A stretch of 64,000 bases of DNA, taken from Sedimentisphaerales bacterium. GTDB lineage: Bacteria > Planctomycetota > Phycisphaerae > Sedimentisphaerales > SM23-30. The notes beneath the pieces were generated by a model. That model was not told the origin of the DNA, did not search any database, and was given only the letters and a program-made list of their open reading frames with translations. The stretch lies in assembly GCA_963666285.1 (NCBI GenBank), contig OY762711.1; one strand, given 5' to 3'. Made by a program: the position numbers and the translations under genes. Of the stretch, positions 46,701 through 62,523 are shown piece after piece (positions within the stretch are counted from its first letter, which is position 1; each line of letters opens with the position of its first letter).

Positions 46701-47075
46701 AGGAGATTTTCCGGTGTGAGTTTGTGTTGAGGGGCTGGTGCGAGTGTTGGTGTTGTTGGGGTGTTGTAAGTGGTTGTATTATAGTGGTTTATGTTGTGGT
46801 GGTTTCGTGTTGGAAATGAAGGCAATGTTTTTTGAATTGCGGCGTCAATTTTGATGGTAAGTGTTTGGGGAATTGGCGTTTATTTGGTATAATACTATTG
46901 TTTTGAGATTGATTTTGTCTTTTGGCCGGGAAAGAACAGTTTTTTCTCCCGGAAGTTAAGTTTTTTAATAATTGCAGTAGAGTTAAGTCTTGTTTTGAAA
47001 AGAAGTTAGAGGATGAAAAACTGAACGGGTGAACAGTTGAGCAGAAGAAAGAAATATGAGTCTGGAGTCATAAAA

Positions 47076-50000
47076 ATGAAAAATATAATAACTTGTGTGT
47101 TAATTGTATTGTTATGGATGTCAACATTTGCATTTGGTGTGGGTGGAGTTTTGCCTGGGAGTGGGACAGTGAGTGATCCGTATTTGATAGAGGATCTGGC
47201 GGATTTTGATGTGTTTGCGGATGAGGCTAATGCCGGGACGTATTGGGCGAGCGGTGTGTATGCGAAACTGGTGTGTGATATAGATTTGAATGGTCGTGTA
47301 TATGATAGAGCTGTTATTGCATGGGATACAGATGATACAAATGGTGTTAATTTTGATGGAGCAGATTATTCAGGGATCTTTGAAGGTAATAATCACATAA
47401 TAAGTAATATTTCGCTAGAGACTTATTATTACGCAGGGCTTTTTGGTCGGTTAAATAATGGTTCAATTTTAAATCTAGGTGTCGAAAATATAAACATTAC
47501 AAGTTCCAATGGATATAGTGAATATGTTGGTGGTTTGGTCAGCTGTAGTATAAGCAGCTTAATCAATAATTGTTACACAATAGCAACAATTGAGACGGGT
47601 GGTTCTATGGTTGGCGGACTGGCAGGTTGTAATGGGTATGGCAGTACAATTGAAAAATGTTATAGCAATGCAACGGTTTCCGGATACCAATTAATTGGTG
47701 GTTTAGTCGGACTCAATAAAAGTAGTGGTACAATAAACGAAAGTTATGCTATTGGTTATATATCTGGCAGCAGGCTTGTAGGTGGTCTGGCGGGAAGGAA
47801 TTACGGTGGGTCAATATATTGGAGTAATGCATCAAGTACAGTTTCCTGTGATAATGAGATGGTTGGCGGTTTAGCAGGAGGTTCTTCTACTGGTTCCATA
47901 ATTTCTAATTGTTACTCAACGGGTACTATTACTGGAGATGCATATAAGGCCGGAGGCTTGATTGGTGATCTGGAATATGGACAATTATTGAGTTGTTATT
48001 CGCATTGTAGTGTATCAGGATCAAATTCAGTTGGAGGTCTTATTGGATCAGCAAAAGTATTAGATGTGGAATATTGCTATTCAACTGGAGTAGTGTCTGG
48101 AAGCCGATACCCTGGCGGTTTTATGGGATACTTATATTCCGGAAGCTCAGGTATAAAATCATGTTTCTGGGATGTTGACAGTTCTGGTATGACGAACGGA
48201 TTTAGCAGTTATAATATTGGAACGATTTCAGAACTGCAAGGGCTGAATACAGGTGAGATGCAAACTCGATCTACTTTTACTGATGCAGGATGGGACTTTA
48301 TTGATGAGAGCAGCAATGGTACTGATGACTTTTGGTCAATGAAATTATATCCAATATTAAGTATTAATACTGATGGATTTATTTCTATTCCTGACATAAC
48401 AAGCTTACCCCAGATTGATGCAGAAGCGTTAATAATAAGTTCAGGTTTTGTGCCAGGCAATATTAGTTATGATTATAACAGCATAATTCCTGAAGGAAAT
48501 GTAATTAGTCAATTTCCTTTAGCAGGTAAAATGAGGGTGTCAGGCGCCTACATTAATTATACTTTATCATTGGGAGTTTATCCTATTACTGGTTTGGGTA
48601 CAAAAGAATCCCCATATATTATTTCTGATTTTGAAGGTTTTAATATTTTCTGTGATCCGGAAAATGCAGTGAAATACTGGGAGGAGGGAGTTTATACTAG
48701 ATTAGACAATGATATTGACCTGGATCCAGTTTTACCTGACAGGCAGTTGTATACTATGGCACCAATATCACCAGATAGTGCTGGTTCAGGATATCAGGGA
48801 AAAGAATTCAGTGGAGTGTTTGACGGAAGTGGTAAAATAGTAAGTAACCTTACTATCGATGGATCATACTATTGTGGTATGTTTGGTAGAATAGGAACCA
48901 GCGGTTCAGTTATTAACCTCGGTTTGGAAAATGTTTCTGTTACCGGTTCATTTGATAATATTAGCGGACTTGCGGGAGAAAGTTCCGGCAATGTCAGCAA
49001 TTGCTACATTACCGGCATTGTTAGCGGGAGAGACGCTGTTGGCGGGCTTGTTGCAGAAAATAATAGAGGTAGTATTGATAATTGTTACAGCACATGCTCT
49101 GTGACAGGCGATTATGAAATTGGTGGTCTAGTTGGATCTAATTATTTTGGCAGTATTAGTAATTGTTACAGCATTGGTATTGTAGACGGGAATTTACTTG
49201 AGGGCGGACTGGTCGGAAGCGATCTTTCAGGTATCATTAGTAATTGTTATTTATATATTTATTGTGGTTTGAATAATGGACATGGTATTCCACTGGATGA
49301 TACTGGATTAGAGACAAAATCCAGTTTTTCCGGATTTGACTTTACCGGCGATAATGCTGATGGTTCTGGGGATTACTGGGCTATTGAGCCTGGTTATATG
49401 CCAAGACTTGTTTGGCAGGAATCTCCCGGTTTTAATGCGCCATATTTAATTGACAATATTACTACCAGCTTACTAGGCAGCGGTTATTCTGATGACCCTT
49501 TTATAATAGATAGTTATAGTGATCTAATGATATTTAAGAGCGACTCATCTCTGCGAATCGGCTACTACAGCTTAACAACTGATATAGATTTGTCAGGCAT
49601 AACATATACAGAAGCGTTTATACCGGATGATTTTTTCGGAATATTCCAGGGTAATGGTCATCGTATCTCCAACTTAACGATTGATAGTGATTCTAACCTG
49701 GGTTTGTTTGGTAGACTTAATGGTACAGTAGACAATCTAATCCTTGATGACATATCGATAAACGGCACAGGTTCTTATGTCGGTGGGGCAGCAGGAAACA
49801 ATTATTATGGCATTATCAGTAATTGCTATGTTACGGGCAGTATAGTTGGTTTGGGTAACTATGTTGGCGGACTGGCTGGGCGTAGTTATGGTAACATCAG
49901 CAATTGTTGCAACGAAAGTAATATTAGCGGCTCTTATCAAAGCACTGGTGGTTTAACGGGGGATAATTCTGGCAGAGTCATGAAAAGTTACAGTACCGGC

Positions 50001-51635
50001 AATGTAGAAGGAAGAAGTGCTGTTGGTGGTCTAGTGGGAAATAATTATGGCACTATTGTTAACAGTTACAGTACAGGTGATGTTAGCAGTTCTAATAATT
50101 ATGTTGGTGGTCTTGTTGGGACATTTACATCAGGAGATATGAGTAATTGCTATAGCACCGGAAAAGTGAACGGTTTACATTTTATTGGCGGTTTGGTAGG
50201 AGATTATCAACCAGAAACTGACAATGTCTGCAATTGTTATTTTTATGTTCATAGCGGTCCTAATAATGGCTATGGAATGTATCTTGATGATGTTGGCTTA
50301 GAGTCAAAATCCAGTTTTTTCGGTTTTGATTTTACAGGTGATGATACAGATGGCTCGGAAGATATTTGGGAAATTGATCCAGGTTACATGCCTAGACTTG
50401 TTTGGCAGGAAACTCTGGGCTTTAATGCTCCATATTTAATTGACAATATTTCTACCAGCTTAACCGGCAGTGGTTATCCTGATGCCCCATTTATTATAGA
50501 TAATTTAGATGATTTGCTGGAGTTTAAGAATAATAATGCACTTCGTATCGGATGCTATAGTTTAACGAGTGATATTGATTTAGCTAGCGTAACATATACA
50601 GAAGCGTTTATACCGGATGATTTTTTCGGAATATTCCAGGGTAATGGTCATCGTATTTCTAATTTAATGATTGATGGTGATTCTTACCTTGGTTTTTATA
50701 GTAAATTATGTGGTACCGTTGGTAATCTTGTCCTAGAGAATGTGTTCATAAATGGCTCAGATGATTATGTTGGCGGTTTGGTAGGAGACAATTATTATGG
50801 CAATATCATTAATTGTAATGTTTCAGGCAGTGTATCCGGTTTAGATCGTTATGTTGGTGGATTAGCGGGAGACAATTATTATGGCAGTATTAGCAATTGC
50901 TATTCCAGTTCAATTGTTACCGGCTATCGTTATGTTGGCGGCTTGGTGGGAAACAACTACAATGGTATAATTACCAAAAGTTATAACACCGGTACAACAA
51001 ATGGTACTGGTTATTCTATCGGCGGACTTACAGGAGAAAATTATAATGGTAGCATAAGCAGTAGTTTTAGTACCGGAATTGTGAACGGAGAAAGCTATAC
51101 AGGCGGCCTGTGTGGATCGAATTCCAGTGGAGATGTGAGTAACTGCTATGCCACAGGAGATGTTATTGGTTTTTATTCTGTCGGCGGTTTGGTAGGAGAG
51201 AATAATTATGCAAATATCAGTTACAGTTACAGTATCGGAGCAGTTTCTGGTAATAGTGTTGTGGGTGGATTTTGTGGAAATAATATTAGTGCCACTATCA
51301 GCAGTTGTTTCTGGGATATTGAAACTTCTGGTAGGACAATGAGTAATGGAAGTATTGGCAAATCAACAGCAGAGATGCAGATGGTAAGCACCTTCACTGA
51401 TGCGGGTTGGGATTTTGTAGGTGAGGATGGAAATGGTAGTGAGGATTTGTGGCGTATGCCGTATGCTATGCCGGGTTATCCGATACTGGCGTGGCAGAAG
51501 GATATCGCGGGCGATATAGCAGGTGGATATGGTGTGGATATGGAAGATGCAGCTCTGCTGGCGAGTGGTTGGATGGAGAACTATACAAAGGCAGATTTGG
51601 AAACTCTGGCGTCTAACTGGCTGGCGGGGAAGTGA
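47076..51635 (+). CDS. Secreted GLUG-repeat protein with one PASTA domain and a C-terminal dockerin-like motif
   Basis: Signal peptide MKNIITC; many VGGLVG..N...I.NCYS.G repeats; GSGT..DPYLI modules; PASTA (IPDITSLPQIDAEALI...VISQFP); GDIAGGYGVDMEDAALLASGW. Confidence 0.88.
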   Translation: MKNIITCVLIVLLWMSTFAFGVGGVLPGSGTVSDPYLIEDLADFDVFADEANAGTYWASGVYAKLVCDIDLNGRVYDRAVIAWDTDDTNGVNFDGADYSGIFEGNNHIISNISLETYYYAGLFGRLNNGSILNLGVENINITSSNGYSEYVGGLVSCSISSLINNCYTIATIETGGSMVGGLAGCNGYGSTIEKCYSNATVSGYQLIGGLVGLNKSSGTINESYAIGYISGSRLVGGLAGRNYGGSIYWSNASSTVSCDNEMVGGLAGGSSTGSIISNCYSTGTITGDAYKAGGLIGDLEYGQLLSCYSHCSVSGSNSVGGLIGSAKVLDVEYCYSTGVVSGSRYPGGFMGYLYSGSSGIKSCFWDVDSSGMTNGFSSYNIGTISELQGLNTGEMQTRSTFTDAGWDFIDESSNGTDDFWSMKLYPILSINTDGFISIPDITSLPQIDAEALIISSGFVPGNISYDYNSIIPEGNVISQFPLAGKMRVSGAYINYTLSLGVYPITGLGTKESPYIISDFEGFNIFCDPENAVKYWEEGVYTRLDNDIDLDPVLPDRQLYTMAPISPDSAGSGYQGKEFSGVFDGSGKIVSNLTIDGSYYCGMFGRIGTSGSVINLGLENVSVTGSFDNISGLAGESSGNVSNCYITGIVSGRDAVGGLVAENNRGSIDNCYSTCSVTGDYEIGGLVGSNYFGSISNCYSIGIVDGNLLEGGLVGSDLSGIISNCYLYIYCGLNNGHGIPLDDTGLETKSSFSGFDFTGDNADGSGDYWAIEPGYMPRLVWQESPGFNAPYLIDNITTSLLGSGYSDDPFIIDSYSDLMIFKSDSSLRIGYYSLTTDIDLSGITYTEAFIPDDFFGIFQGNGHRISNLTIDSDSNLGLFGRLNGTVDNLILDDISINGTGSYVGGAAGNNYYGIISNCYVTGSIVGLGNYVGGLAGRSYGNISNCCNESNISGSYQSTGGLTGDNSGRVMKSYSTGNVEGRSAVGGLVGNNYGTIVNSYSTGDVSSSNNYVGGLVGTFTSGDMSNCYSTGKVNGLHFIGGLVGDYQPETDNVCNCYFYVHSGPNNGYGMYLDDVGLESKSSFFGFDFTGDDTDGSEDIWEIDPGYMPRLVWQETLGFNAPYLIDNISTSLTGSGYPDAPFIIDNLDDLLEFKNNNALRIGCYSLTSDIDLASVTYTEAFIPDDFFGIFQGNGHRISNLMIDGDSYLGFYSKLCGTVGNLVLENVFINGSDDYVGGLVGDNYYGNIINCNVSGSVSGLDRYVGGLAGDNYYGSISNCYSSSIVTGYRYVGGLVGNNYNGIITKSYNTGTTNGTGYSIGGLTGENYNGSISSSFSTGIVNGESYTGGLCGSNSSGDVSNCYATGDVIGFYSVGGLVGENNYANISYSYSIGAVSGNSVVGGFCGNNISATISSCFWDIETSGRTMSNGSIGKSTAEMQMVSTFTDAGWDFVGEDGNGSEDLWRMPYAMPGYPILAWQKDIAGDIAGGYGVDMEDAALLASGWMENYTKADLETLASNWLAGK

Positions 51636-51809: not shown

Positions 51810-51968
51810 TAGAGCAATTTAATTTTTCGTGTTCGCTTTTTACCTGTTGCGGCTTCGGCTGACTTCATCAGAAATACTCGTAATATATCAATATTCCTGT
51901 GTTTTCTTCTTTATCAGCCTCGTCCTCACAGAGGCAAAAATCGGAACAGAAAATATTAAAGTGCTCTA
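51810..51968. mobile_element. ~160 bp MITE-like element, copy 1
   Basis: Terminal IRs TAGAGCAATTTAAT...ATTAAAGTGCTCTA; reverse-complement copy at 59037-59214. Confidence 0.75.
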
Positions 51969-52061
51969 GAATTGCAGTTGAACGCAAATAATGCGTATAG
52001 GAAGAAGGGATAATGTAGTCGATGGCTGCATATAGAAATTGTGAAAACAGGAGAGTCTAAA

Positions 52062-55000
52062 ATGCAAAAGCTGAGTCTAATGATTTTGAGTCTGGTTTTG
52101 GTAGTAAGTGGGATGGTAAATGCTGCTGGTGGGGCTATGCCGGGGAGTGGGACGGAGTCTGATCCGTATTTGATAGAGGATCTGGCGGATTTTGATGTGT
52201 TTGCGGATGAGGCTAATGCCGGGACATATTGGTCGAGCGGTGTGTATACGAAACTGGTGTGTGATATAGATTTGAGCGGTCGGGTGTATGACAAGGCAGT
52301 GATAGCACCGGATACAGATAATACACAATTATGGTATCAGGGGAATAATTACTATGGAGTTTTTGATGGAAATGGTCATAAAATAACCGGTTTGACAATT
52401 ACGCCAACTGCCGGAGAAGATTATCTTGGCCTGTTTGGCAGGCTTTTGGGTTCTACAGCTGCAATAAAAAATCTTAATGTAGAAAATTATTCTATAACAG
52501 GAACCAACTTAAGTGATGTGTTGGGAGCAATATGCGGGATGTGTGTAGAAGCTAAGATTGATAGTTGTCATGGAAAAGGGATGGTGTCAGGATGTTATTA
52601 CCTAGGAGGTGTTTGCGGAGTATTAGCGGGAGGAGAAATAATTGACAGCAGTATAGAATGTGAAATTATTTGCAATAATAGTGTTTATGCCGGTGGTATA
52701 TGTGGTATTATTGATGGTAGTTCTTCTATAACAGACTGCTCCAGTGTAGGTGTAATATCAGGAATTGGTTTTACAAGAAAAATTGGTTGTTTGTGCGGCT
52801 ATAATAATTCATCGACGATCAGCAGGTGCTCGGCAGAAGGTTCGATCAGGCTTGGAGTTGATTCAGAATTAGTTGGCGGTTTTTGCGGCGAGAATAATTC
52901 TGGAACGATTGAACATAGCTATAGCCAGGTTTCTGTCGAAGGAGGTGACAGTTTAGGTGTGTTTTGTGGTTCGAACAATGACGGTACGATACGCAAATGT
53001 TATGCCAGTGGTGATATTCGTGGTGAAAGTAATGTTGGCGGTTTTTTGGGTTATAACAATACAGATGAATATTTAGTAACATATTGTTATTCTTCAGTTT
53101 TAGTATTAGGTATGGATAGGGATACAACGGGCGGCTTTTGTGGTGATTATGAATCCAAATCATCTTTATATTGTATCTACGATGGGGAAAAGAACAGTTA
53201 TTATTATGTTGGCGGTGCGTATCCTGCATCAACAGCCGAGATGCAAATGATGAGTACTTATACTGATAAAAACTGGGATTTTGTAAATTATTCTAATGGC
53301 GGGACAGATTCTGACTGGTATATGGCAGATTATCCGATATTATCATGGCAGATTGAAGAGTTCGTTGAGATGCCTTATGTTGGTAATATACTGCCGTCAG
53401 AAGCAGATGTTATGTTGGCTAATGCAGGTTTGCTTACAGGAGTGGTGAGCAATGAATACAGTAATGTTGTTGCAGAAGGTATGATAATCAGCCTGGAATA
53501 TGAAGCGGGAGACTATCTGGCAAGCGGTTCGAGTGTTGATTATACTGTATCTCTCGGAGTATGGCCGGTAGTGCCGGAGTTGGTAATGATGACATTGGCT
53601 GGCGCAGAATCGGCGATATTGGATGCCGGTCTGGAATTTGGTGGGGCCGGTTATGTTTACCATGATTTCTTCGAGCCGGGAAGAGTTTGCAGTCAGTATC
53701 CTGCTGCGGGTGTAATGTTAGGGGCTGGAGAGAAGGTATATATTAATGTTTCGCTGGGAGTGTGCCCGGGATTGGCAGGCAGCGGAACGGAGGAAGATCC
53801 TTACCTGATAGCGAGCCTGGCAGATTTTGTTGAGTTTTCTGATGTTGATAATGAAGGAGTTTACTGGGCGGAAGGTGTGTATGCCAGGCTAACAAATGAT
53901 ATTGATCTTGAGACAATGAATTATACAAACTCGGTTGTATCGTCATATAATGGTATTTTTGACGGTGATGGTCATGTGATAAGTAATTTGCGGATAGGAA
54001 GTATGGATGGTTTTGGTGACCTGGGACTGTTTGGTTGGCTGCGTGCAGGTTCTGTGGTAAGGGCTCTTGGTCTGGAAGATGTCGAAGTTCGGTCGGGTAA
54101 CAGGTCGAATTATATAGGCTCTCTTTGCGGGATGATTTATGGCGAAGGAGCAAAGATTGAGGGCTGCTATTCAACCGGAAGTGTAACAGCGGGCGAGGGA
54201 GTGAATTTTGTCGGCGGTCTGTGCGGCAGAGTGGCAAACGAAGGTGTATTGACAGATTCGTATTCAGTTTGTACGGTATCTGCAGGTAGGAACTCGGACA
54301 ATATTGGCGGTCTGTGTGGGGCAGTTAATGGCACAGTTGCTTATTGTTATGCCGGGGGAGATGTAAGTGGAGAAGGAGTTAGAGTCGGCGGATTGTGCGG
54401 CGGAATAGGTACGTGGTCGGGTATAACCGGGACAGTATCAAACAGCTATGCAACCGGTTCTATAAGCGGTGTGGATTATGTCGGCGGCTTTTGCGGGGAA
54501 AGTATTTCAGATGTAGTAATAAACTGTTATGCAACAGGCGAGGTAAGCGGCGAAGATTATATAGGAGGTTTTATTGGTTATGGCAGTGCGAGCGGCTGCT
54601 ATGCAACGGGAAATGTTACGGGGGCCTCTAAAGTAGGTGGCTTTGTCGGTTACGGCGGCGGCGAGAATTGTTATGCTACGGGTGAGGTTACGGGATTGGC
54701 TGAGGTTGGCGGTTTTGTCGGAACTTTGTATAATGTCGATGTGAAATATTGTTATTCGACCGGTAAGGTATCAGGGTATTCAGAAGTTGGTGGTTTTATC
54801 GGGGTATTAAAAGAAGGCGTTTCGGAGAGTAATTTCTGGGATGTTGAAGCGAGCGGATTCGGCAGTGTTGGTGATGTATGGGCAGGTTCAACCGGCATGA
54901 CAACGGCACAGATGCAGACGAGGCAGACGTATGGTGATGCGGATTGGAATATGGTTTATCAGGCTTCAAATTATGATTCCCGAGAATACATTGCGCCAGA

Positions 55001-56849
55001 TTGGTATATGGAAGAAGGCAGTTACCCTCAAAAGCCATGGGAGTTTGCATGTGATTTGCTGCCGGGTAAGGGTTCCAGTTACAATCCGTTTCTAATAGAG
55101 GATATCTCTGATTTTGATATTTTATGCGATACACGATATTTCTGTCACGAAGGCGTTCATGTGAAACTAATGTGCGACCTAGACCTTGAAGGAAGGGTTT
55201 ATGATAATTCACCAATAGCTCCTCAATGTTATAGATATTCTGACAATGAAAGATACGTTGAGGTTGGATTTGCCGGGGTATTTGATGGAAATGGTTATGT
55301 TATTAGTAATATTAACATTGAACCAGACGGCGATAATATTATGCAATGCATAGGTTTTTTTGGCAGGGTAAAAGGTGAAAATGCTGAAATTAAAAACCTT
55401 GGAATAGAAAACATAACGATATCAGATACGGTAATGGACAATTACGTTAATGTTTGGGAATATCGGTATGGTGGATTATGTGGTTCAAACCAATATGGCG
55501 TAATAAGAAATTGTTATACTACAGGAATGGTTGGCGGTATAGGATTGTACAGTCAGTTAAGTAATAGTAATGGCGGTTTGTGTGGATACAATCTAGCAGG
55601 CGAAATCACAGGTAGTCATTCATTATGTGATATTTCAGGCGGAGGTGGCGGTTTATGTGGCTGGAATAGGGGAGGTTCAATTACAAATTGTTATGCTGCA
55701 GGTGAAATATTTAATGGCGGCGGTGGTTTATGTGGATATTCACTTGATTATTCACCATCAGCATCATCAGATATTTATTATGCTTCAATAAAAGATTGCT
55801 ATGCTTCAGGAAATGTGAGCGGAAAAAGATATGTTGGAGGTTTTATAGCAAGAAATTGTAGTTTAGTTGAGAATTGTTATGCAACAGGAAATGTTGAAGG
55901 AATTGAATTTCTTGGCGGTTTTGCAAGTTCAAATGAATATGATAGTTTCGTATATCATGCAGGTAATATTTCGCAATGTCATTCGACAGGTGACGTGAAT
56001 GTCAATGTTCCGGCTGATTATATAATTGATGAGGTTTCGTATGCCGGCGGTTTTTGCGGTAAAGGACGTTCAGATATAACAAACTGTTATAGTGAAGGTA
56101 ATGTAACGGTGAATAATGAATGCCCGAATGCCTATAGTAAAGTCGGCGGTTTTTGCGGCGGGAGTGTGTCCTCAACTTTACGTATATCATATTGTTTTTC
56201 GACCGGTTCGGTTTATGCCGGGGCAAATAGCGAAAGTGTCGGCGGTTTTTGCGGATTTAGTAGCCAAGCAACGATATTCAGGAATTATTCCAGGGGCGAT
56301 GTTGAAGGCGGCAAATATGTTGGCGGTTTCCTTGGTTATGCAGATGGATGTTCGATAGGTTATAATTATTCAACAGGCGAGGTTGATGGAAATGAGAAAG
56401 TTGGTGGCTTTGCCGGATATTTTGAAAGTAATCGTGGCGGAGGTTCATTCTGGGATGTAGAGACAAGCGGCATGGCAGATCCAGAAGCAGGAGAGGAAGA
56501 TACTGACGGGATGGCAGGCAAAATGACATCAGAGATGTATGATATTGATACATATCTGGATGCGGGTTGGGATTTCAGATTTGGTCGTGGAAGCGGTACA
56601 ATCAGTTACTGGTATATGCCGGTAGATGATTATCCGATCTTGACCTGGCAGGAAGGTGTTCCGCTGACACCAGATATTGATGGTGATAGGGATATTGATA
56701 TAATAGATTTTACACGATTTGCCAGTTACTGGGGTGAGTGTGATTGTGGCGAGCCAGGCTGGTGCGGTGGAAGAGATTTTGATATGGATCGTTGTGTGAA
56801 TATGAATGATTTGCTTATACTGGCGTCTAACTGGCTGGCGTGGAAGTAA
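52062..56849 (+). CDS. Secreted GLUG-repeat protein with two PASTA domains and a C-terminal dockerin-like domain
   Basis: Signal peptide MQKLSL; VGGFCG/GGLCG repeats; two PASTA units; DIDGDRDIDIIDF...DFDMDRCVNMNDL. Confidence 0.88.
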   Translation: MQKLSLMILSLVLVVSGMVNAAGGAMPGSGTESDPYLIEDLADFDVFADEANAGTYWSSGVYTKLVCDIDLSGRVYDKAVIAPDTDNTQLWYQGNNYYGVFDGNGHKITGLTITPTAGEDYLGLFGRLLGSTAAIKNLNVENYSITGTNLSDVLGAICGMCVEAKIDSCHGKGMVSGCYYLGGVCGVLAGGEIIDSSIECEIICNNSVYAGGICGIIDGSSSITDCSSVGVISGIGFTRKIGCLCGYNNSSTISRCSAEGSIRLGVDSELVGGFCGENNSGTIEHSYSQVSVEGGDSLGVFCGSNNDGTIRKCYASGDIRGESNVGGFLGYNNTDEYLVTYCYSSVLVLGMDRDTTGGFCGDYESKSSLYCIYDGEKNSYYYVGGAYPASTAEMQMMSTYTDKNWDFVNYSNGGTDSDWYMADYPILSWQIEEFVEMPYVGNILPSEADVMLANAGLLTGVVSNEYSNVVAEGMIISLEYEAGDYLASGSSVDYTVSLGVWPVVPELVMMTLAGAESAILDAGLEFGGAGYVYHDFFEPGRVCSQYPAAGVMLGAGEKVYINVSLGVCPGLAGSGTEEDPYLIASLADFVEFSDVDNEGVYWAEGVYARLTNDIDLETMNYTNSVVSSYNGIFDGDGHVISNLRIGSMDGFGDLGLFGWLRAGSVVRALGLEDVEVRSGNRSNYIGSLCGMIYGEGAKIEGCYSTGSVTAGEGVNFVGGLCGRVANEGVLTDSYSVCTVSAGRNSDNIGGLCGAVNGTVAYCYAGGDVSGEGVRVGGLCGGIGTWSGITGTVSNSYATGSISGVDYVGGFCGESISDVVINCYATGEVSGEDYIGGFIGYGSASGCYATGNVTGASKVGGFVGYGGGENCYATGEVTGLAEVGGFVGTLYNVDVKYCYSTGKVSGYSEVGGFIGVLKEGVSESNFWDVEASGFGSVGDVWAGSTGMTTAQMQTRQTYGDADWNMVYQASNYDSREYIAPDWYMEEGSYPQKPWEFACDLLPGKGSSYNPFLIEDISDFDILCDTRYFCHEGVHVKLMCDLDLEGRVYDNSPIAPQCYRYSDNERYVEVGFAGVFDGNGYVISNINIEPDGDNIMQCIGFFGRVKGENAEIKNLGIENITISDTVMDNYVNVWEYRYGGLCGSNQYGVIRNCYTTGMVGGIGLYSQLSNSNGGLCGYNLAGEITGSHSLCDISGGGGGLCGWNRGGSITNCYAAGEIFNGGGGLCGYSLDYSPSASSDIYYASIKDCYASGNVSGKRYVGGFIARNCSLVENCYATGNVEGIEFLGGFASSNEYDSFVYHAGNISQCHSTGDVNVNVPADYIIDEVSYAGGFCGKGRSDITNCYSEGNVTVNNECPNAYSKVGGFCGGSVSSTLRISYCFSTGSVYAGANSESVGGFCGFSSQATIFRNYSRGDVEGGKYVGGFLGYADGCSIGYNYSTGEVDGNEKVGGFAGYFESNRGGGSFWDVETSGMADPEAGEEDTDGMAGKMTSEMYDIDTYLDAGWDFRFGRGSGTISYWYMPVDDYPILTWQEGVPLTPDIDGDRDIDIIDFTRFASYWGECDCGEPGWCGGRDFDMDRCVNMNDLLILASNWLAWK

Positions 56850-56923: not shown

Positions 56924-58021
56924 CTATTTCCCGTAGCAGATGCTCGGTCCGAGGTGGTTGGGGAAGTGGTTGTTTTCGAAGAGGAACTTGCGGGTATCAT
57001 AGCACAGGTGGCATTTGCCGGTGTAAGTCGGCTTGGGCCGGAATCCGAGCGTGACGGCGTGTTGGGCCAGCCCGTAGGGTCCGGAATTGGTGAGGGTAGA
57101 CCATATCGGATGGGTGGTGAAGTTATAGTCTAGCCATAGGTCTTTGAGCGAGTATTCCGAGTTGATTTTGCCGGTGATAATGCCTATGCAGGTGCTGCTG
57201 AAGACATTTCCCATGCCGTCGATATGGACACCCTTGGCGTCCATGTGTGATTTACGGCATCCGGCGGATTTGAACTGTTCAAACGGTTTCTGGTCAACGA
57301 GAGGAGCGAGTTGTTCAGCGGCTCGGCCAACCATCCGTTCGGGAATTTTGGCGAGAGCGTCTTTGAATGCCTGGTTTAGCTGAGTTTGGCTCATGGATTC
57401 GGTGTGGGTCGGATTAGCGGCGAAATCCCGCCATCGAACCTGTACTTTATCATCGCCGAGTATTTCCGTTGCAATACGTATGCCCCGCTGTACGCATTCT
57501 GTTGGGACATATTGCTGATGATAGCAGTCTGTGCTTATTTGCAGTTTTGTGAGGCCAAGATTGGCGAGTTCTTCTATTCTTTTGGTTGTAATATCGTCAT
57601 TTATACACCATGCTGCGTTGGTTTCGACCTTTTCGAGCCCTCCGAGACGTTCCTGCTGAGCGATTTTGAGGGTGTCGCGCAGAGTTTCATATCGCAGGAA
57701 AGGTTCGCCTCCGGTAATATGTACCAGTCCCTCCTGTCCGCAAAGCTGCCGGGTAGCACGCCAGCAGTCGATAGCCATTTCGAGCGACATTTCAGTATCG
57801 GGTGAGTTGATATCCGGGGCGGAAAAGACATAGCAGCAGGCGCAGGCCGCGGGGCATCGGTAGGTGAGCATAATGCCAACAGACCGCCATAGTTTATACT
57901 TTGGAGCATTGCGAGGCTGGTCCATATTGAAGGCATTTTCGTATAGATTAACAGGTTCTTTCTTATTTGTCATACAGGGAATTTTAGCTTTTTGAGTCGA
58001 AATTAGCAAGGAAAGATACAA
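56924..58021 (-). CDS. Radical SAM protein with C-terminal Cys cluster
   Basis: YRCPAACACC (CxxxCxxC), HITGGEPF, ETNAAW, CHLC; true start probably downstream of the listed one. Confidence 0.85.
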   Translation of the reverse strand: MYLSLLISTQKAKIPCMTNKKEPVNLYENAFNMDQPRNAPKYKLWRSVGIMLTYRCPAACACCYVFSAPDINSPDTEMSLEMAIDCWRATRQLCGQEGLVHITGGEPFLRYETLRDTLKIAQQERLGGLEKVETNAAWCINDDITTKRIEELANLGLTKLQISTDCYHQQYVPTECVQRGIRIATEILGDDKVQVRWRDFAANPTHTESMSQTQLNQAFKDALAKIPERMVGRAAEQLAPLVDQKPFEQFKSAGCRKSHMDAKGVHIDGMGNVFSSTCIGIITGKINSEYSLKDLWLDYNFTTHPIWSTLTNSGPYGLAQHAVTLGFRPKPTYTGKCHLCYDTRKFLFENNHFPNHLGPSICYGK

Positions 58022-58477
58022 ACTTCAGACTATCAGTAAGTCAGTTTGTGGTTATGGAAGATTGGAGTATGAAGAGTTAAGGTATTGCATGCCGGTAAAA
58101 CTGTTAAATAATGGCAGAAAAGCCGTTAAACAAGCGAATAACCTGTTATTTCATGGTAATATTGATTATAGTTTTCGTTAGATTTTTTGAGAGAGGAAAG
58201 TGGAAAAATGCTCTGTAGATAGCTCTAAAATGGCAGGAAAAGGCCTGAAACGTAAAAATTTTGCATTTTTAGCGATTTTTTTATACTTTTTCTCAACTTT
58301 TTGCTTTGCAAAAACCGATTTAGAGAGTAAAAATAGAGCTATATTATCGGACATGACTATTTCGTTATGAATTAAGCTTTATTTAAAGGACTGGATAAAG
58401 AGAGATACTTTGTACTGTGTGCGGCATAACGTAAGGCCGCTTGTATTATATTACTTATTCTCATGGAGGATACGATT

Positions 58478-58735
58478 ATGGCGAAAAAAGCCGCGAAGAA
58501 AACTGCTAAAAAACCTGCTAAGAAAGCTGCTGCTAAAAAACCTGCTAAGAAAGCTGCATCAAGAGAAGTATTGGTTGTAGCCAGCAAGGTAAAAGCTTAC
58601 ATCAAGAGCAAAGGCATGATGTGCAGCAGTGACGCTGTTCAGGCACTATCAGAAAAAATTTACTGCATCCTGGATTGTGCATGCACACGCACCGAAGCTA
58701 ACCGTCGCAGCACAGTTAAGCCTCAGGATCTGTAA
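58478..58735 (+). CDS. Bacterial histone-fold protein with Lys/Ala/Pro-rich N-terminal tail
   Basis: GGAGGA RBS; LVVASKVKAYIKSKG..SSDAV..LSEKI...L..A..R...NRRSTVKPQD histone fold with RxTxxxxD motif. Confidence 0.85.
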   Translation: MAKKAAKKTAKKPAKKAAAKKPAKKAASREVLVVASKVKAYIKSKGMMCSSDAVQALSEKIYCILDCACTRTEANRRSTVKPQDL

Positions 58736-58974
58736 TTTTTGTGGTGTTCCTGATGAGTGTTTAGCGAAAGCGGTAATACATTTTCGCTAAAGATGATAAG
58801 GCTGAGAGTAATATCTTCTCAGATAAGAAATCATCGAAGTGTCTCATAACTGCACTGTGGTAAATATCGCAAATGCGGGGGTTGTGCTTATATTCGTAGG
58901 GTACAATTTTACGCTAAAGGTGACAGTAGTATTTGAGAACAGATTACGATTCAGTAAAACCCGAAAAGACAAAG

Positions 58975-59004
58975 AAAAGCCGGGCATTTATGTTCGGCTT
59001 TTTT
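58975..59004 (+). terminator. Rho-independent terminator
   Basis: AAAAGCCGGGCAT-TT-ATGTTCGGCTTTTTT. Confidence 0.75.
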
Positions 59005-59036
59005 ATTTTAAATCAAGCAGGTTAATTCCGGAAGCA

Positions 59037-59214
59037 TAGAGCAATTTAATTTTTTTGTTCCGATTTATGCCTCAGTGAGGACGAGGCTGACAAAGAAGAA
59101 AACACAGTAATATTCATATATTGTGAGTATTTCTGTTGAAGTCAGCCGAAACCGCAACAGGCAAAAAGCGAATACGTCATAAAGTGATGCGAAGCATAAA
59201 AATTAGATTGCTCA
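59037..59214. mobile_element. MITE-like element, copy 2 (inverted, with ~20 bp insertion)
   Basis: Colinear with the reverse complement of 51810-51968. Confidence 0.75.
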
Positions 59215-59418
59215 AAAAGTAGCCTTGCCGACCTCTTGCCTCGTAGCCAGAATCCGGCATACCTTTTTTTGTAGTTTAGCGAAGCTTGCCCCTCGGCAAC
59301 CGTAGCGGGCAGCAGTTCGCTGTTTTCTTTTCACATAAATGGACCCGGTACCGGCCTTTGCGGATAATGTTGAACAGTTAAAACTACGCCTTGTATAAGA
59401 TGCGTAGCATAAAGCGTA

Positions 59419-59640
59419 TTACTTACCTGAACCTGTTAATCTGTCAAGTGCAGATTGAGCGTCCGTATCTCCCTGCTCCGCCGCTTTGCGATACCATTTC
59501 ACAGCCTCAGTATAGTTTTGTTCATCATAATATTCTAATCCTAAATTAAAACACTCTTCTTTGGATTTGGCGGCATAAGACTGTTCACTAATTCCTAAAA
59601 CCAATGCTGACACTATCAATATAATACTTACTTTTTTCAT
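59419..59640 (-). CDS. Small secreted Sel1-repeat protein (single repeat, possibly truncated)
   Basis: Signal peptide; FNLGLEY..QNYTEAVKWYRKAAEQGDTDAQ. Confidence 0.7.
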   Translation of the reverse strand: MKKVSIILIVSALVLGISEQSYAAKSKEECFNLGLEYYDEQNYTEAVKWYRKAAEQGDTDAQSALDRLTGSGK

Positions 59641-59739
59641 TACTGATTTATCCTTTTCCTTGATTTTTATGCTATTATATACTTATTGCCGCTTCTGGCA
59701 ATATTATTATGGCAGTAGCCACACAGCCATACCCCAAAG

Positions 59740-60196
59740 CCCTGCCGATTTCTTCGATTATTCCATGGCCAATCGTACCTATCGATATTTCAAAGGTGAG
59801 CCGCTATATGCCTTTGGTTATGGCCTGAGCTATACAACTTTCGATTACAGCGAGATTGAATTGTCTGATAAGATTGTCAAAACTGACGGCAGTATTAAGG
59901 TCAGTGTAAAAGTAAAAAATACCGGCAAAGTTGACGGCGAAGAGGTCGTCCAGCTATATCTCCGTCATATAGACTCACCCGTACCTCAGCCGATCCATAG
60001 CCTCGCCGGTTTCAAGCGAGTTGCTATTGCCTCTGGAAAATCAGAAACAGTTGAGTTCGAACTGCCTGATTCCTCTCTGCGATATTGGGATACCGATGCC
60101 GGTAAATATGTTGTCCCAACCGGCAGGTTCGAGGTCCAGGTTGGCTCGTCTTCTGACAATATCCGTCAGAAAGCTGCCTGCGTTGCTGTTAAATAA
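59740..60196 (+). pseudogene. C-terminal remnant of a GH3 beta-glucosidase/xylosidase (Fn3-like domain)
   Basis: DYSMANRTYRYF.GEPLYAFGYGLSYTTF, VKNTG..DGEEVVQLY, LAGFKRV; catalytic N-terminal domains absent. Confidence 0.8.
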
Positions 60197-60609
60197 TTTC
60201 GAAGTGGATTATGTTTTGCTAAATGAAAAAGTTCTGACTGATATTGGGGCTTTTTTCTTTTTCATTACCGACGAAAACACTTGAGTTATCGGAATATAGT
60301 CTGAATTTATAATGAAATATATTTGAATAAATGCATTTTGGTGAAATGTCGCTGTAAATTCTGGAAAGTAAGATTTGTGACATTTGTTTCACTTCACCTG
60401 TGTGTAATATTAAAATAATGCCTGGTTTGTGAAATATATTTCCGGATCCCCTAACTTGTCGTTACAGTAATTTCATAATTTAGTTCTCTTCTGATTATCG
60501 TAAGCAATTGCATATCGTTGTCTTCAAAATTATATTCTAAACTGCTTTTCATCTTTTCCGATAGTACAATCAACAAGAGGTAAGAATGTTTTTTTATTAG
60601 GAGGAGAAG

Positions 60610-62523
60610 ATGGAATCTGATCTTCAAGCTGTAACTGAAAATTTGAATTATATCTGGGTATTGATGTGTGCGGGACTGGTATTCTTTATGCAGGCTGGTT
60701 TTATGTGTGTTGAATCCGGGTTGGCTCGTGCCAAGAATTCTATTAATGTTGCGATCAAGAATATGGCCGATTTCGTGCTTGCCACAATCCTGTTCTGGTT
60801 TGTTGGCTTTGGCATTATGTTCGGCAAAAGCTGGAATGGCTGGTTTGGCACTTCAGAGTTTATGATCAACCTGGACAATACCTGGGAAATTGCTTTTATG
60901 ACTTTCCAGATTGTGTTCGTTGGTACCGCTGCGACTATCGATTCCGGTGCTGTTGCCGAACGAACCAAGTTCATGTCTTATCTTATTCTTTCTGCCATTG
61001 TTTCTTCACTTATATACCCGGTATTCGGTCATTGGGCCTGGGGTAGTCTATTCTTCAACGATCAGGCAGGATGGCTCGAAAATATGGGCTTCAAGGATTT
61101 CGCCGGGTCAACTGTTGTCCATTCTGTCGGTGGCTGGGTTGCTCTTGCCGGTGTTATTATTATTGGTCCGAGAATGGACAAGTACGATGAAAACGGTAAT
61201 CCCAGGAAGCTGCATCCGCACAATATGCCGCTCACTTATCTTGGCACATTCATTCTTATTTTTGGCTGGTTCGGCTTTAATTGCGGCAGTACCCTTGCTG
61301 CTACAAAAGATATCGCACCAATTGCCTTTAACACCATTCTTTCCGGCTGTTTCGGTTGTGTGGTTTCTTCTGCTCTCAGTACTTTATTCAGCCATGACAA
61401 ACACCCGGAAGGTGAGATGATCGCCAACGGCGTTCTCGGCGGGCTGGTCGGTATTACTGCCGGTTGTGCCTTTGTCGAATCTACCGGTGCTATGTATATT
61501 GGTATAGGCTCAGGCTTTGTGGTATATTTTGGTTCACTTTTTATCGAAAGAGTTCTAAAGCTTGATGATGTGGTAGGAGCGATTGCGGTTCATGGTCTTT
61601 GCGGGGCGTGGGGAACAATTGCTGTTGGACTTTTTATCACCGATGCGAATCTCGGCGAACTTACCAGGCTTCAGCAGCTATGGGCACAATGCGTTGGCGT
61701 GGTAACGGCTTTCTTCTGGACTTTCATCACGAGCTTTATCATTATCAAACTGATCTCAATGTTTAACGGTGGTATGCGGGTTTCTCGCGAAGATGAACTC
61801 ATGGGGCTGAATGTTGCCGAACATGGAGCATCATCTTCTATTCTGGAACTTGCCAACGCAATGGACAAGGCTACCCGCACCGGAGATTTCTCCGAAGCTG
61901 TTAAGATCACCGAAGAAGTTGGCACCGAAGCCGGTGATCTCGCTCGCGGTTTCAATCTCATGGTCGATACTGTCCGTTCTGCTCTCGAAAGAACTCAGCA
62001 GCAGGTAATCGCAGTCAGCAAAGCCCAAGAGGAAAGTAGGAATATGCACGAACAGCTCGAGAGTAACCAGCTTGAATATTCGACCAGGATCGAGCAGATC
62101 GCATCGAATCTCAACGCTATGATTGCTGAACTTGATAACTCTATGGCTGTTATCGCCGGTGCCGCTGATAATGTCGGAGTAAATGCTACCGATCTCCAAT
62201 CTCAAATCGATTCTATCCATAAGTCTTTGAAGAAGATCGACGAGATATCAAATACTATCAACCTGATATCTATGAACGCGATGGTTGAAGCTGCCAGGGC
62301 CGGCGAGTCCGGCAGAAGCTTCGCGGTTGTCGCGACAAACATGAAAAAACTTGCCGGAAATTCCAATGATATTACTCAGGAAATTCATAATATTGCTGAT
62401 GGCATATTTAATAAGCTTAACGATGTTCTGAATAGTATACGCGAACAAATTGAAATTGCCGGTAAAGGCAAAGAGTCAATTTTGAATGCTAATGTCCTTG
62501 TTAGTAATCTTATTAAAGAATAA
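60610..62523 (+). CDS. Ammonium transporter (Amt) fused to a methyl-accepting chemotaxis signalling domain
   Basis: FMQAGF, SGAVAER, DFAGSTVVH, WFGFN, DDVVGAIAVHG; C-terminal INLISMNAMVEAARAGESGRSFAVVA. Confidence 0.9.
   Translation: MESDLQAVTENLNYIWVLMCAGLVFFMQAGFMCVESGLARAKNSINVAIKNMADFVLATILFWFVGFGIMFGKSWNGWFGTSEFMINLDNTWEIAFMTFQIVFVGTAATIDSGAVAERTKFMSYLILSAIVSSLIYPVFGHWAWGSLFFNDQAGWLENMGFKDFAGSTVVHSVGGWVALAGVIIIGPRMDKYDENGNPRKLHPHNMPLTYLGTFILIFGWFGFNCGSTLAATKDIAPIAFNTILSGCFGCVVSSALSTLFSHDKHPEGEMIANGVLGGLVGITAGCAFVESTGAMYIGIGSGFVVYFGSLFIERVLKLDDVVGAIAVHGLCGAWGTIAVGLFITDANLGELTRLQQLWAQCVGVVTAFFWTFITSFIIIKLISMFNGGMRVSREDELMGLNVAEHGASSSILELANAMDKATRTGDFSEAVKITEEVGTEAGDLARGFNLMVDTVRSALERTQQQVIAVSKAQEESRNMHEQLESNQLEYSTRIEQIASNLNAMIAELDNSMAVIAGAADNVGVNATDLQSQIDSIHKSLKKIDEISNTINLISMNAMVEAARAGESGRSFAVVATNMKKLAGNSNDITQEIHNIADGIFNKLNDVLNSIREQIEIAGKGKESILNANVLVSNLIKE

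Follow-up and report, generated by a model that had tools for sequence, protein, structure and literature searches.

The locus at positions 58478-58735 raises the question of whether a small, lysine-rich protein is a bacterial histone and, if so, what its basic N-terminal tail and its cysteines contribute. The window, which is the whole 64,000-nucleotide stretch of Sedimentisphaerales DNA that was analyzed, encodes this protein on the plus strand. As evident from the translation, the open reading frame comprises 85 amino acids and ends in RRSTVKPQDL, as the preliminary description had claimed. An alternative upstream ATG at 58463 overlaps the Shine-Dalgarno sequence listed in Table 1, and a similar site was found before the MAK start in 58 of the 63 loci of the order. 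In 48 of these 63 loci, a loose promoter-shaped pattern preceded the gene, a figure that stands without a shuffle control. The upstream neighbor is a radical-SAM-type open reading frame divergent to the histone gene, and a terminator-like hairpin follows the gene; from this arrangement, the histone gene is likely transcribed as a single-gene unit. A Logan contig spanned positions 58100-59104, duplication included, without a single difference or gap, although this agreement is not independent because the underlying runs (X1 and X2) represent one sample, possibly the source sample. Searches of Pfam (E up to 1) and NCBIfam revealed no histone family for the 85-residue protein, and homologues named by their source were mostly "hypothetical", the annotation that had been anticipated.

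Table 1. Coordinates of the features at the histone locus and of the hairpin in related loci.
Feature	Position	Strand	Basis or remark
Candidate promoter: T-tract, TTGCAA, spacer, TAAAAA	58298..58333	+	inferred
Shine-Dalgarno GGAGG, 8 nt 5' of ATG	58465..58469	+	start at 58478 backed by GGAGG
N-terminal tail, residues 1-29: 12 K, 11 A, 2 P, net +13	58478..58564	+	predicted disordered
Exact 27-bp (9-codon) tandem duplication in tail	58504..58557	+	bridged by Logan contig without differences
Short-α3 face-to-face-type histone fold, residues 30-85 and stop; signature R71, N75, R77, T79, D84	58565..58735	+	HLp alignment
Four Cys codons, C49, C63, C67, C69	58622..58684	+	HLp alignment, tetramer model
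Genus-conserved structured element: closing helix AAGUGU/ACGCU, UUCG-capped hairpin 58881-58907	58837..58916	+	presumed 3' UTR
Intrinsic-terminator-like hairpin and T run	58973..59004	+	3' of histone gene
CGCGAAAG loop on variable stem	9-172 nt after stop		L007, L009, L011-L013, L015, L016, L018-L020, L078-L086

A phmmer search of the PDB revealed that the core was highly similar to HLp from Leptospira perolatii (PDB 9QT0), with 35 of 59 residues identical (59%) in a gap-free alignment over 59 residues and an E-value of 1.1e-18. HBb/Bd0055 from Bdellovibrio bacteriovorus (E 5e-4) and HTkC (E 0.28) were also matched, and a profile of 43 sequences gave E-values of 2.5e-26 for HLp, 7e-10 for HBb/Bd0055 and 6e-6 for HTkC. 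The proposal that the fold is close to the Leptospira face-to-face (FtF) type and related to Bd0055 was therefore borne out, Bd0055 being the more distant of the two.

The residues that mark the FtF type, as named in the available text of PMC11390915 and PMC12701072, were all found in the window histone. The RxTxxxxD motif (the RD clamp) is formed by R77, T79 and D84, and the tetramer residues R48 and N52 of the family profile (R49 and N53 in HLp) are present as R71 and N75. Upon alignment with HLp, its tetramer residues R49, N53 and R55 together with the RD clamp corresponded to R71, N75, R77 and D84, and the five signature residues of Table 1 were invariant in all of the best 120 of 1510 homologues. 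Among the HLp residues listed as DNA contacts in the accessible part of PMC12701072, A13, S14, K15, K17 and K21 align with A35, S36, K37, K39 and K43, while T27, G29, T56 and T57 align with C49, S51, S78 and T79; the contacts are thus kept save three, T27 being replaced by Cys and G29 and T56 by Ser. S52 and T61 of HLp are replaced by Ala and Gln in the window histone. In the model of the core, two long helices were followed by a C-terminal helix of 3 residues, corresponding to the shortened α2 and truncated α3 of this type. HBb/Bd0055 (PDB 8CMP, 8FVX) shares the short-α3 bacterial histone fold; in contrast, it is of the bacterial-dimer type, binds DNA as a dimer and lacks equivalents of R71 and N75, according to the portions available of PMC10627809. 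The HBb type is recognized by the absence of the R48 and N52 equivalents, both of which the window histone has, and the Spirochaetota sequences without them formed a separate clade in the tree (support 100/100).

A multimer prediction had been proposed as a check of the fold. Four copies of residues 24-85 gave a homotetramer score of 0.85 compared with 0.00 for the best of 3 controls, a pass that may stem from the predictor's memory of the solved structure 9QT0. Of 30 solved pairs, 21 attained the mark applied to this score, compared with 0 of 23 single chains, and these counts are only roughly valid for four copies. The tetramer runs shared at least 98% of their contacts, with a partner pLDDT of at least 89, and the contacts predicted between the dimers (residues 70-75 and 81-84) coincided with the FtF interface (end of α2, loop 2 and α3). 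The fold was compared by Foldseek, by a second look at 3 chains with VIA and by the sequence profiles. With the tailed monomer model (pTM 0.39), Foldseek gave no histone match; with the core monomer model, 9QT0 was the top match (E 3.5e-3, probability 0.99, TM 0.42, rmsd 12 Å), and no match with a Z of at least 2 was obtained by VIA-align among the 3 chains. The weakness of these monomer searches probably reflects the modeling of one chain of an obligate dimer. Together with the homology to HLp, the predicted assembly suggests that the window histone forms a tetramer.

The gene is single-copy in the window genome, where no second histone was found with this query; one HU/IHF-family gene is also present. 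Its presence in the order is nearly universal: 227 of 251 genomes of the order contained the histone gene, as did 40 of the 41 relatives analyzed here and 121 of 301 genomes of the phylum. The named homologues belong to Phycisphaerae, Sedimentisphaerales and Anaerohalosphaera, and our literature search found no report linking histones to Sedimentisphaerales.

We regard it as probable, with good confidence, that the protein is a tailed FtF histone whose ring-shaped homotetramer wraps approximately 60 bp of DNA, with the lysine/alanine tails acting as non-specific charge arms. Judged from HLp, wrapping of this length without sequence preference is likely. By analogy with L. interrogans, and given the conserved promoter and ribosome site, the protein would be highly abundant. 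The contribution to nucleoid condensation put forward in the preliminary description follows from membership of the histone family, and we take it to be right. The HLp described in the available text of PMC12701072 (9QT0-9QT2) has the related core, the same RD clamp and tetramer residues and, by prediction, the same tetramer. In contrast, HLp comprises 63 amino acids with approximately 7 unresolved N-terminal residues, whereas the window histone carries a 29-residue tail of charge +13 and four cysteines.

The preliminary description put the tail at approximately 23 residues; we found that 29 residues precede the fold, the string quoted there being itself 28 residues long, and the value of approximately 23 corresponds to the excess over the 63-residue HLp. 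In the AlphaFold2 model, residues 1-29 showed a pLDDT of 44-50 and no helix. The tail lacks Gly and contains a single Arg and a single Ser, both at the fold junction. The exact duplication noted earlier was confirmed, positions 58504-58530 being identical to 58531-58557, and Tandem Repeats Finder reported a period of 27 with 2.0 copies and 100% identity at 58503-58557. Since the copies are exact, the duplication is recent, and it may represent one case of repeat slippage lengthening or shortening the tail.

Conservation of the tail and of the cysteines was counted in the best 120 of 1510 homologues. In this set, tails ranged from 8 to 52 residues (median 18) and were composed of 53% K, 30% A and under 1% R; 11 of the 120 had tails of at least 29 residues, which places that of the window at the long end. 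Over 122 loci, one mis-called start being left out, tail lengths ranged from 2 to 44 residues. Many members of the order make do with a 5-residue tail, long tails recur in several families, and both Leptospira-like loci have short acidic tails. Near-invariance is confined to the first four residues, and no position-specific motif is conserved. In the relatives L002, L003, L007, L034 and L089, a Cys was seen inside the tail, adjoining the fold.

This variability bears on the reading in which a long, mostly neutral tail arose by repeat slippage and the protein functions as tailless HLp does. Because so many members of the order have a 5-residue tail, the family as a whole can do without a long one, which may be nearly neutral. 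Long and short tails were scattered over a poorly resolved tree (58 loci, 56 columns) from which the order of gains and losses could not be recovered; the exactness of the duplication, and hence its recent origin, points the same way, as does the argument in the available text of a review (PMC10919886) that tails readily appear and disappear. However, at least 15 tail residues were kept in 107 of the best 120 of 1510 homologues, a set biased for tail retention by the tailed query itself, and the near-constant K/A make-up with almost no acidic residues argues for selection on charge. We therefore consider a neutral tail unlikely. On the preferred reading, in which the tails act as charge arms, four flexible tails would add +52 per tetramer beside the +12 of the cores and could neutralize or bridge flanking DNA, thereby strengthening DNA binding and compaction, much as the PAKK/KAAK tail of HupB acts in nucleoid association.

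The tail had been called eukaryote-like, and its composition does not bear this out. The tails of H3 and H4 are conserved and position-specific, with patterned K, R and Gly, as described in the accessible text of PMC10919886, whereas the window tail is a K/A/P repeat without Gly and with one Arg, in a family whose tails vary from 8 to 52 residues among the best 120 of 1510 homologues. By composition, the tail resembles the K/A/P repeats of H1 and HupB rather than the H3/H4 tails. In mycobacterial HupB, as in the H1/H5 linker histones, a K/A/P repeat is carried by a folded nucleoid protein, and the PAKK/KAAK tail of HupB aids nucleoid association (PMC5676037, portions available); that tail is C-terminal on an HU fold, whereas the window tail is N-terminal on a histone fold, and the likeness is one of composition alone. 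The window genome itself reuses tail-like K/A repeats in two stand-alone open reading frames and in parts of three other proteins. The stand-alone K/A/V/P-repeat frames encode 115 residues (G000 C1:655,640-655,987; L142:641-988) and 96 residues (C1:3,784,621-3,784,911; L143:622-912), gave no match in Pfam and look like bacterial H1-like nucleoid proteins. They may resemble Hc2 and AlgP.

Nor is a basic tail unusual in this group: in the available text of PMC11390915, bacterial FtF histones are described as commonly bearing one. The statement that characterized examples lack long tails agrees in part with the literature. It fits Hocher 2023, in the accessible text of which long tails are absent from most bacterial singlets and persistence in Planctomycetota is noted; it does not fit Schwab et al. 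2024 (PMC11390915), where, in the text available, the FtF histones have a positively charged, non-conserved N-terminal tail and Planctomycetota are named among the main hosts. From the histones described there, the window histone differs in nothing of kind. A 2024 review (PMC10919886), as far as its text was available, likewise argues that tails of this sort are readily acquired, citing HupB. The tail is thus of a known kind, and the gene is no discovery in itself. Our literature search revealed no publication in which the function of the basic tail was tested for a bacterial FtF histone.

The tail had also been described as possibly modifiable, and one reading takes it as a regulated platform, the lysines of which would be acetylated and deacetylated so that the nucleoid is loosened and tightened. 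The 12 lysines lie in a segment predicted to be disordered, and the genome encodes a 581-residue fusion of a GNAT acetyltransferase with a Hist_deacetyl domain (G000 C1:5,772,686-5,774,431; L141:387-2132) that could serve as the enzyme. HDAC-family matches were present in 31 of the 41 genomes and in 23 of the 24 other genomes of the window's family, and sit in open reading frames of similar length in many genomes of that family. However, 9 of 14 control genomes also had such a match, the fusion gene is unlinked to the histone gene and lies approximately 5 Mb away on the contig, and the HDAC-family match is absent from G031 and G037, which have 44-residue tails, and from G034, with a 25-residue tail. 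SET and SIR2 matches were not found in the window genome (SET was matched in 2 of the 41 relatives), and the missing position-specific motif also speaks against such regulation. Direct support for a modifiable tail was therefore not obtained; acetylation of the tail is possible, whereas its use as a regulated platform, perhaps through the GNAT-HDAC fusion, appears unlikely to us.

As the preliminary description stated, the fold carries four cysteines. C49 occupies the position of HLp T27, which contacts the DNA backbone, and C69 aligns with HLp L47 in the hydrophobic dimer core and contacts I42 in the model. C63 and C67 share a face of helix 2 and do not belong to the interface residues predicted with confidence. 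A redox or metal switch, in which oxidation of C49 or metal binding by C63xxxC67 would alter DNA binding upon exposure to oxygen, draws on this position of C49 and on several further observations. Four cysteines in 56 residues exceed the genome background of 1.39% (binomial p = 0.008), and every core among the loci of the window's family contained 2-5 cysteines. Among the best 120 of 1510 homologues, C63 occurred in 65 and C49 in 47, with both in 42 compared with 25.5 expected, relatedness being uncorrected. COX1 was not matched in the 97%-complete window genome, which would fit an anaerobe tolerant of cysteine. In the same 120 homologues, however, all four cysteines occurred together in 2, and 41 had none; position 49 alternated between C (47), T (38) and S (35), and position 69 was mostly I, M or A. 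Relatives had cysteines at other sites (47, 60, 64 and 70), rarely or never with 67 or 69, and no Cys-Cys pair appeared among the 25 best predicted contacts of the tetramer model. The word "cysteine" does not occur in the main text of PMC11390915. The suggestion of a redox-sensitive histone consequently fared poorly, the one point that we retain in its favor being the alignment of C49 with a DNA-contacting position, and we judge a switch of this kind very unlikely. Rather than forming a sensor, the cysteines most probably represent Ser/Thr/Ala-type substitutions that a probable anaerobe tolerates.

Downstream of the gene, we found conserved elements that differ between the window's genus and the rest of its family. 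A CGCGAAAG hairpin loop lies within 200 nt 3' of the histone stop in 19 of 24 loci of the window's family and in 1 of 93 others, five duplicate loci having been dropped beforehand, three of them motif-bearing copies from the family. The hairpin is usually located just ahead of the terminator. Across 16 training sequences, its stem showed 32 two-sided changes compared with 17.5 in shuffles, with 60% of cells pairing, among kin that are not independent. In the 16 training genomes, the best match per genome of the hairpin model R1 was the CGCGAAAG site, which is circular. When the model was applied to 17 loci, matches were obtained solely at the three loci of the family that had been held out of training (E 1.5e-4, 6e-3 and 0.71). 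Extra R1 matches in genomes of the family (18 examined) were mostly inside open reading frames, ribosome-site-like or terminator-like; one, at L112 in G022, resembles a true second copy, and another, at L098 in G024, was ambiguous. Neither the window's genus (4 genomes) nor G015 has the hairpin. A AGCGAAAGC at about 58764 of the window was considered as a copy and rejected, as it was left unscored by model R1.

The window's genus has a different element (Table 1), in which 95% of cells were paired and 5 of 16 pairs showed two-sided changes, in 4 sequences of which two are nearly identical. It resembles a three-way junction with an invariant AAGUGUCUCAU, has equivalents in L002-L004 and is single-copy in the genome. 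Rfam gave nothing near the gathering score in positions 57500-60500 of the window or in 20 related loci. The 3' region folded with a z of -5.8 with the terminator and -3.8 without it, and since 9 of 91 control downstream regions folded equally well or better, fold stability alone is unexceptional. A hammerhead-like reading of this region and a conserved antisense small open reading frame were both dropped after inspection by eye. Also by eye, other lineages of the order appeared to have conserved structured 3' regions of their own (L029-L032 and L041; L047, L048, L052, L063 and L064), one group with two hairpins and another with a GCGCTAAC block. The CGCGAAAG and genus elements may stabilize or regulate an abundant histone mRNA.

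Other features of the window were recorded alongside. An intergenic repeat of approximately 180 bp lies at 59037-59217, with a second, partial copy at about 51828-51968; it gave 24 BLAST matches in the genome at 79-100% identity and approximately 30-fold depth in the runs, and may be a miniature mobile element. Positions 47037-51635 and 52041-56849 encode, in tandem, two secreted-looking proteins with glycine-rich repeats (1532 and 1602 amino acids), the second with a PASTA-like stretch. At 60610-62523, an ammonium transporter carries a fused C-terminal domain of methyl-accepting-chemotaxis-like type.

A joint reading would combine a tail modified by the GNAT-HDAC protein, an oxygen-sensing cysteine at the DNA contact and an mRNA stem-loop controlling supply (CGCGAAAG in most genera, another fold in the window's genus) into one regulated histone. 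We hold this to be highly improbable; if true, it would be a bacterial counterpart, reached by convergence, of the histone code of eukaryotes and of the histone mRNA stem-loop. A printed account of the CGCGAAAG hairpin 3' of a histone gene was not found in our search, and in the family relatives this candidate histone-mRNA 3' element is the sole lead from the locus that we did not find in print. For the tail, the order offers a natural series in which a near-constant core is joined to tails of 5 to about 50 residues, and this constant core with graded tail lengths makes the role of the tail directly testable beside HLp.
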